Below are positions 28,983-29,000 of a stretch of 32,310 nucleotides of DNA, piece after piece (within the stretch, counting starts at the first letter, position 1; every line of letters begins with the position of its first letter). The position numbers were made by a program, and so were the translations under genes. Source of the DNA: Corallococcus aberystwythensis (lineage in GTDB: Bacteria; Myxococcota; Myxococcia; Myxococcales; Myxococcaceae). The DNA lies in NCBI RefSeq assembly GCF_003612165.1, contig NZ_RAWK01000089.1, positions 1 through 32,310 of the forward strand, written 5' to 3'. Below the pieces are notes generated by a model, which ran no database searches, was not told where the DNA came from, and saw only the letters and a program-made list of their open reading frames with translations.

Positions 28983-29000
28983 CTGTGAAGCGCTTCACAG
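28983..29000. promoter_or_regulatory. perfect 18-bp palindrome CTGTGAAGC|GCTTCACAG = CRP/FNR-type site (TGTGA-N6-TCACA)
   Basis: Read directly from the sequence. The centre lies about 45 bp upstream of the ATG at 29037 of the tandem cNMP-binding protein gene and about 170 bp upstream of the divergent macro-NDT gene. Confidence 0.5.

Follow-up and report, generated by a model that had tools for sequence, protein, structure and literature searches.

This locus raises a simple question: is the perfect palindrome that lies between two divergent genes of Corallococcus aberystwythensis a regulatory site and, if so, which gene does it serve and what kind of protein reads it? The DNA analysed here is a stretch of 32,310 bp with a G+C content of 69%, which we call the window. 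The palindrome sits in a 214-bp intergenic region, with a gene for a macrodomain and NDT/TIR-like protein (macro-NDT) on one side and a gene for a protein with two cyclic-nucleotide-binding domains (the cNMP gene) on the other. We read it as a fresh example of a well-known class of regulatory sites, one that may point to an uncharacterised CRP-type regulator and to a cyclic-nucleotide circuit.

A CRP-type palindrome upstream of a PKA-R-like gene

The palindrome, its parts and the two genes that flank it are located as follows.

28983-29000, no strand: perfect 18-bp palindrome CTGTGAAGCGCTTCACAG, the predicted site of a dimeric CRP/FNR-type regulator
28984-28999: 16-bp core TGTGA-AGCGCT-TCACA, with the centre of the palindrome at 28991.5
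28984-28988: left half-site TGTGA, invariant in 14 of 14 orthologous promoters
28995-28999: right half-site TCACA, invariant except for TCACT in loci L011 and L012
29037-29933, plus strand: 298-aa protein with two cyclic-nucleotide-binding domains, PKA-regulatory-subunit-like (PF00027 twice, E 1.4e-46)
27827-28822, minus strand: macrodomain and NDT/TIR-like protein of 331 aa, divergent; given for context only, as it lies outside the regulated unit

The initial annotation had reported a palindrome with canonical CRP half-sites and spacing, and this is what the DNA contains: the core is the inverted repeat TGTGA-N6-TCACA that defines a CRP-type site. The centre of the box lies 45.5 bp before the ATG at 29037, in agreement with the distance of about 45 bp that had been proposed, and 36 nt separate its last base from that codon. 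This ATG is the start of the cNMP gene; the ORF finder also listed a TTG at 29028, but that codon lacks conservation as a start.

We compared the window with dinucleotide-preserving shuffles of its sequence. The exact motif TGTGA-N6-TCACA occurs once in the 32,310 bp, against 0.03 expected, and appeared in 3 of 100 shuffles. Matches with up to two mismatches are not enriched in the window (7 found, 7.8 expected), and it holds no further box with zero or one mismatch. Looking for a regulon, we searched about 250 kb of myxobacterial DNA and met no second box there either, the exact matches being the orthologous box only. Perfect 18-bp palindromes of any sequence arise at a mean of 0.36 per shuffle. 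The palindrome by itself is weak evidence, because 31% of the shuffles of this G+C-rich window contain at least one.

The product of the cNMP gene had been described as a tandem cNMP-binding protein without an HTH, and Pfam bears this out, with two PF00027 domains and no DNA-binding domain. Having neither a catalytic nor a DNA-binding domain beside these two, it classifies by its predicted domains as a PKA-R-like protein. Its layout consists of a conserved helix-like N-terminus (MSLFARLQALL), a low-complexity linker and the two PF00027 domains, and its best solved relatives are the PKA RI-alpha regulatory subunits (E ~3e-24) and PKG, together with a multi-CNB protein of Toxoplasma. The phosphate-binding cassette of domain A, FGELALLTGTQRTAT (residues ~100-116), is canonical and carries an R-T signature (RTAT). 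In the cassette of domain B, FGEISLLRSRLATAT (residues ~232-247), an Ala replaces the phosphate-binding Arg in all listed members examined. Only one of the two domains thus appears to have a canonical cassette, which suggests that domain B is a degenerate or differently liganded site. The R-T signature is found in PKG. It also occurs in the cGMP-binding CRP CgrA (PMC10187061).

A possible counterpart of this protein is CbpB of M. xanthus, a PKA-R homologue with two such domains that, according to Kimura et al. (2009) as cited in PMC11139211, interacts with the Ser/Thr kinase SpkA. Both proteins are myxobacterial and have two cyclic-nucleotide-binding domains without an output domain. The likeness to CbpB is one of description, and the closest Myxococcus proteins that we found are longer than the 298-aa protein and about 40% identical to it.

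Conservation and anatomy of the promoter

The closest relatives of the window are Corallococcus genomes, with 94% identity between its cNMP-binding protein and the C. exercitus counterpart. We aligned the 110 nt upstream of the start codon from 14 orthologous promoters, that of the window and those of 13 further Corallococcus-type genomes. Two blocks stand out in this alignment, TGTGAA.C..TTCAC(A/T)GT and TAGC(A/G)T. Mean pairwise identity reaches 88% in the 18 columns of the palindrome, against 59% in the remaining upstream columns, and invariant columns are concentrated in the palindrome (13 of 18, versus 13 of 97 elsewhere upstream; Fisher p ~1e-6). Both pentamers are fixed in 12 promoters and the other two (L011 and L012) carry a single substitution, while the spacer occurs as AGCGCT, AGCACT, ACCGCT, AGCATT or ACCATT, with asymmetric drift at positions 2, 4 and 5. 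Fixed pentamers around an asymmetrically drifting spacer are the pattern of a CRP box, as opposed to that of an operator with a central CG or of a base-paired stem. Across the orthologous promoters, the half-sites thus appear to be under selection and the spacer to be free.

The genes upstream of the promoter vary. Five of the 14 loci (L005, L006, L007, L011 and L012) have an alpha/beta-hydrolase gene that separates the macro-NDT and cNMP genes, and in these loci the sequence beyond about -85 is unrelated, yet the box and TAGCRT are kept. Since the box stays with the cNMP gene when the neighbour changes, the element belongs to the promoter of that gene. Judging by the alignment, the box is a genuine, selectively maintained cis-element of this promoter, and very probably a functional protein-binding site. 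The evidential weight is carried by its conservation and by the specific CRP consensus; of the two we regard conservation above all as decisive.

The intervening gene encodes a 238-aa dienelactone-hydrolase-like protein (minus strand, 3106-3822 in L005 and 3078-3794 in L011), and its insertion marks a variable slot inside an otherwise syntenic block. The alignment also contains a second, weaker conserved block, GCCTGCC.GG..G.C.TTTC, at ~28943-28966, 20-45 nt upstream of the palindrome. This block is also kept where the upstream gene differs, and it could be the site of a second factor or an UP-like element.

Downstream of the box, two further features complete the predicted promoter.

29022-29027, plus strand: predicted -10 hexamer TAGCAT (TAnnnT type), with TAGC(A/G)T invariant in the 14 promoters
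29033-29035, plus strand: inferred transcription start region, placed from the position of the -10 hexamer, with a leader of ~2-4 nt, effectively leaderless

The hexamer TAGC(A/G)T ends 9 nt before the ATG in all 14 promoters. Between it and the core of the box lie 21 nt in 10 of them, 20 nt in L005 and 22 nt in three promoters, those of L001, L006 and the window, which places the centre of the box relative to the predicted -10 element at -41.5, -40.5 and -42.5 respectively. If the hexamer is taken as -12 to -7, the predicted start falls 2-4 nt before the ATG. The ATG at 29037 is not preceded by a Shine-Dalgarno sequence. For sigma-A promoters of myxobacteria, a class of leaderless transcripts has been proposed before (PMC12754779). 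We found no recognisable -35 element 16-18 bp from the conserved -10 hexamer, since the window has AGTCCG at the -35 distance and most of the other promoters AGTTTC, both unlike TTGACA, and no -10-like hexamer at the corresponding distance on the other strand. A scan for terminators and sigma-70 consensus promoters returned nothing at the box; the strict -10/-35 rule of that scan also misses TAGCAT.

This anatomy is that predicted for an activator-dependent class II promoter of the cNMP gene. Class II CRP-dependent promoters of E. coli are exemplified by galP1 and the CC(-41.5) model promoters. Like the promoter predicted here, they have a 16-bp TGTGA-N6-TCACA site that overlaps the -35 region and they have no -35 hexamer. 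The 21-nt spacing seen in 10 of the 14 promoters amounts to 22 bp from the box to the second position of the predicted -10 element, a distance that most of the orthologues would share with the E. coli class and that is described as exclusive to class II promoters (PMC10187061). The differences concern the host, a myxobacterium of 69% G+C, the G+C-rich flanks, the spacer, which reads AGCGCT instead of TCTAGA, the window copy, which lies one base further out (-42.5 versus the canonical -41.5), and the predicted mRNA, which would be nearly leaderless.

The initial annotation had held that absence of the palindrome from orthologous promoters would count against this reading. The palindrome is present throughout the 14 Corallococcus-type promoters and absent from more distant orthologues of 64-69% identity, in Pyxidicoccus, Myxococcus sp. 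RHSTA-1-4, Citreicoccus and "Corallococcus" sp. H22C18031201, so that the expectation stood within the Corallococcus-type genomes and did not hold outside them. The orthologues of Pyxidicoccus and Myxococcus sp. (L013, L015 and L025) share another motif, CTTGTAGGATGG, about 35-40 nt before the ATG, which includes the -10-like hexamer TAGGAT. The presence of a different upstream motif in these genomes indicates that the promoter was rewired between genera.

CRP-like boxes reappear further away, before tandem-CNB homologues that have N-terminal TPRs and are 46-52% identical to the protein of the window. Four such loci, from Archangium minus (L153), Archangium sp. (L154), a metagenome contig (L155) and Hyalangium sp. 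(L156), each have two boxes exactly 23 bp apart, located 101-164 nt before the ATG.

L153, 2870-2908: double box TGTGACGGAGCTCACT and CGTCAACCGCATCACA
L154, 2874-2912: double box TGTGAACGGTTTCATC and TATCAACCCGCTCACA
L155, 2900-2938: double box TGTGAGCCGCTTCACA (an exact match) and TATGGGGTTGCTCACA
L156, 2837-2875: double box TGTGAACGGCCTCACC and CGTGAGAGGTTTCACA

Each double box forms a 39-bp composite dyad in which the outer half-sites are best conserved. Boxes with up to two mismatches occur about once per 2.6 kb in the DNA compared. At that frequency, chance cannot account for pairs that keep one offset in four out of five promoters of this type. The fifth TPR-type locus, from Myxococcus sp. 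SDU36 (L152), has no box. In L155 the proximal box is followed after 21 nt by TAGAAT, an arrangement that L153, L154 and L156 do not have. As boxes precede tandem-CNB homologues in other families, the association is old within the Cystobacterineae. In L153 and L156 the TPR-type tandem-CNB genes are adjoined by FHA-GAF-Guanylate_cyc genes, and boxes that precede tandem-CNB homologues, sometimes beside nucleotide cyclase genes, would fit a cyclic-nucleotide circuit.

Proposed mechanism, rival readings and the candidate regulator

We propose that a CRP/FNR-family dimer of the CRP type, which would read the TGTGA half-sites, binds the palindrome. The box would then be centred ~41.5-42.5 bp upstream of the start, overlapping the missing -35 element, and the bound regulator would bring RNA polymerase to the TAGCAT -10 hexamer in the way of a class II activator. 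The transcript would be a nearly leaderless mRNA for a PKA-R-like cyclic-nucleotide receptor, which, as had been suggested, may act as a sink, a co-regulator or a sensor. The regulator would be encoded elsewhere in the genome and may plausibly respond to cAMP or cGMP, as both the target and the homologues of that target are parts of cyclic-nucleotide signalling modules; such a response would create a feedback or feed-forward loop. In this chain we infer the transcription start, activation rather than repression, the family of the regulator and its dependence on a cyclic nucleotide. For the chain as a whole, from dimer binding to class II activation of the PKA-R-like gene, we estimate a probability of about 0.5.

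A similar arrangement exists in Rhodospirillum centenum, where a perfect TGTGAactgctTCACA precedes the gcyB-gcyC-cgrA cGMP operon (PMC10187061). As in the window, a perfect CRP-type palindrome stands before genes of a cyclic-nucleotide module in a bacterium that forms resting cells, and the RT signature of cGMP-type pockets is also found in domain A of the 298-aa protein. The two systems differ in that the regulator of R. centenum is encoded within the operon that it regulates, whereas none lies nearby here, and in that the target here is a PKA-R-like protein and not a cyclase or a CRP.

The conservation and position of the box would also suit an operator for a dimeric repressor, of the CRP/FNR or another family, that occupies the -35 region of the cNMP promoter, since a site overlapping this region can serve to repress as well as to activate. 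We consider repression unlikely, as there is no recognisable -35 at 16-18 bp from the -10 hexamer, a lack typical of activator-dependent promoters, and as the 21-nt spacing to the -10 hexamer is tightly kept, which activation geometry needs and simple occlusion does not. Two operator types of other families were examined and rejected. LacI/GalR operators have a conserved central CG step in a palindrome of 14-18 bp, and here the central CG has become CA in 8 of the 14 promoters (AGCACT, AGCATT and ACCATT) with the outer pentamers fixed. The LysR-type box T-N11-A is a dyad of odd length with 11 bases between the symmetric T and A, whereas the dyad here is of even length and its symmetric T/A pairs are 10, 12 or 14 bases apart. 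A hairpin (a terminator, an attenuator or an RNA element) and a functionless chance palindrome are explanations that we find scarcely tenable. The RNA fold of the palindrome is stable (-20.9 kcal/mol, z-score -3.0) and perfect 18-bp palindromes are, as seen above, common in shuffles, but substitutions in the orthologues break the symmetry and are never compensated, neither strand has a U tract, no terminator was called at the box by the scan, and the genes diverge, so that there is nothing to terminate. The predicted start, moreover, lies downstream of the palindrome, the intergenic region has no Rfam match, and chance explains neither the conservation of the box nor its reappearance in front of homologous genes from other families.

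Among regulators that could read the box, MrpC deserves attention. This CRP-like developmental regulator, the only CRP-family protein of Myxococcaceae that has been characterised, has the ChIP-seq motif TGTYN8RAC, which resembles the CRP motif of E. coli (PMC4320627). Its control is described as exerted through synthesis and phosphorylation; it is not known to use cAMP, and no cyclic nucleotide has been reported as its ligand (PMC10187061). If MrpC bound the box, the cNMP gene would belong to the starvation and development programme rather than to cyclic-nucleotide control. MrpC is a CRP-family dimer conserved in the group, its motif shares the TGT-N10-ACA frame of the box (PMC4320627), and it controls other nucleotide-messenger genes (PMC8844925); the MrpC sites of M. 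xanthus also come from the same taxonomic family. The sites of MrpC have a Y after TGT and an R before AC, however, and are usually imperfect palindromes, whereas the box reads TGTG...CACA, with G and C at these positions, the fourth of each half-site, in 14 of 14 promoters, which makes two mismatches to a seven-position motif, both where selection acts. MrpC is thus a possible candidate binder but not the preferred one, and we judge this reading improbable. 

The frame TGT-N10-ACA is also the consensus of the NifA upstream activating sequence. TGTGA-N6-TCACA matches it as well, and the box could in principle be the site of an enhancer-binding protein for a sigma-54 promoter. The paired boxes of Archangiaceae, 101-164 nt before the ATG, would suit such a role, as would the divergent FHA-sigma-54-activator gene that adjoins in L156 and the TGGCACG between the boxes and the gene in L153, but in L153 the -12 element is absent. 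In the window itself, the gap between box and ATG is only 36 nt, a distance incompatible with enhancer looping, and there is no -24/-12 element, GG-N10-GC, at least ~70 bp downstream of the site as a sigma-54 promoter would have it. This explanation is very improbable.

The preferred reading, activation by a CRP-type dimer that is not MrpC, calls for a regulator gene outside the window. The initial annotation had placed it elsewhere in the genome, and consistently no CRP-family gene turned up in the window, nor in the neighbouring 10 kb of related genomes: HTH_Crp_2 was absent from the 24 main ORFs of the window (Pfam) and from four related loci with 10-kb flanks. The regulators that we did see are a LysR-type gene at 5863-6783 in the window and a GerE-type gene about 3.5 kb downstream in related loci. 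Our literature search for a cAMP-CRP of Myxococcus found nothing beyond MrpC. The RETVGR helix of E. coli CRP reads the G at the fourth half-site position with its residues R185 and E181 (PMC10187061). As the box has this G in TGTGA, the predicted regulator would be a paralogue with an R-E-x-x-x-R/K helix.

We also scanned metagenomes for CTGTGAASCRYTTCACAG. The motif was found in at least 120 stretches from very diverse taxa, with no Corallococcus orthologue among the matches listed; among these, 2 of 90 flanking ORFs were of the CRP family and 3 were GspH/pseudopilin genes. These neighbours were rejected as a clue to the regulator because they are too heterogeneous. One locus of a non-myxobacterial organism (L049) has the identical 18-mer 77 nt before a gene of the CRP family, the product of which has the recognition helix SRESVNK; this lends weak outside support to the CRP reading. 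Used as a seed for myxobacterial CRPs, the L049 protein returned only relatives from Acidobacteria and Acetobacteraceae.

Cyclic-nucleotide signalling in myxobacteria is poorly mapped, although cyclases and PKA-R-like proteins such as CbpB are known. We know of no transcription factor in these bacteria that depends on cAMP or cGMP and has a defined site. Taken together, the boxes lead us to a broader and more tentative proposal, which we think possible although doubtful. The Cystobacterineae might possess an unrecognised canonical CRP, responsive to cyclic nucleotides, that is not MrpC and recognises TGTGA. The PKA-R-like tandem-CNB genes, together with the FHA-GAF nucleotide cyclases linked to them, would be the ancient core of what it controls. 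Its site would take the form of a single class II box in Corallococcus and, in Archangium and Hyalangium, of a 39-bp double box with the two copies spaced by 23 bp. If this were true, social, spore-forming bacteria would have a self-regulating cAMP/cGMP circuit comparable to the CgrA-cGMP control of cyst formation. The box could be used as bait for finding the regulator, and the promoter as a reporter for the signal. If the box is instead the ordinary operator of another regulator, our findings amount to a routine promoter annotation.

The macro-NDT neighbour and the rest of the window

The macro-NDT label of the divergent gene agrees with its predicted structure and domains. The AlphaFold model of the protein has a mean pLDDT of 83, and its N-terminal half matches macrodomains (Foldseek probability 1.0, TM ~0.65-0.73 normalised to the targets). 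The C-terminus is NDT/TIR-like, with a hit to Pfam PF05014 that falls below the cut-off (E 3e-5) and a hit to a TIR-effector model of PADLOC (E 1.6e-13). The protein is ~68% identical to its orthologue MXAN_3123 of M. xanthus, and homologues occur across Myxococcaceae and in Archangium, Hyalangium and Vitiosangium, with a length of ~331 aa across the Myxococcota hits. We read the gene, from these comparisons, as a conserved core gene of Myxococcota and not as a member of a defence island.

The suggested link between the macro-NDT protein and the cNMP-related elements is not supported by this comparison. The two genes are adjacent specifically in Corallococcus, where the adjacency is itself broken by the hydrolase gene in five of the 14 loci, and in M. 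xanthus and Pyxidicoccus xibeiensis the slot beside the MXAN_3123 orthologue holds Smoa_sbd and ApbA genes and no cNMP gene. An arrangement confined to Corallococcus is no evidence that the two genes are functionally linked. PADLOC hits at the domain level had also prompted a reading of the gene pair as a Pycsar anti-phage system, in which a pyrimidine cyclase gene stands beside that of an effector with a cNMP-binding domain fused to a TIR or membrane domain. We rejected this reading on synteny and for lack of a cyclase gene, none being present in the 32-kb window.

Two other genes of the window merit mention. The minus strand at 15301-17580 encodes a 759-aa protein with matches to domains of the major vault protein (MVP) of eukaryotes, namely Vault repeats 1-4 and the MVP shoulder, at E-values as low as 3e-45. 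It is unusual for a bacterium to have an MVP homologue, and the same gene is also present in a related Corallococcus locus (L027). Finally, the gene at 8577-10202, also on the minus strand, encodes a protein with a LysM domain and a T6SS VgrG3-like C-terminal (peptidoglycan-hydrolase) domain; in this predatory bacterium it may serve as a lytic factor that is secreted or T6SS-related.
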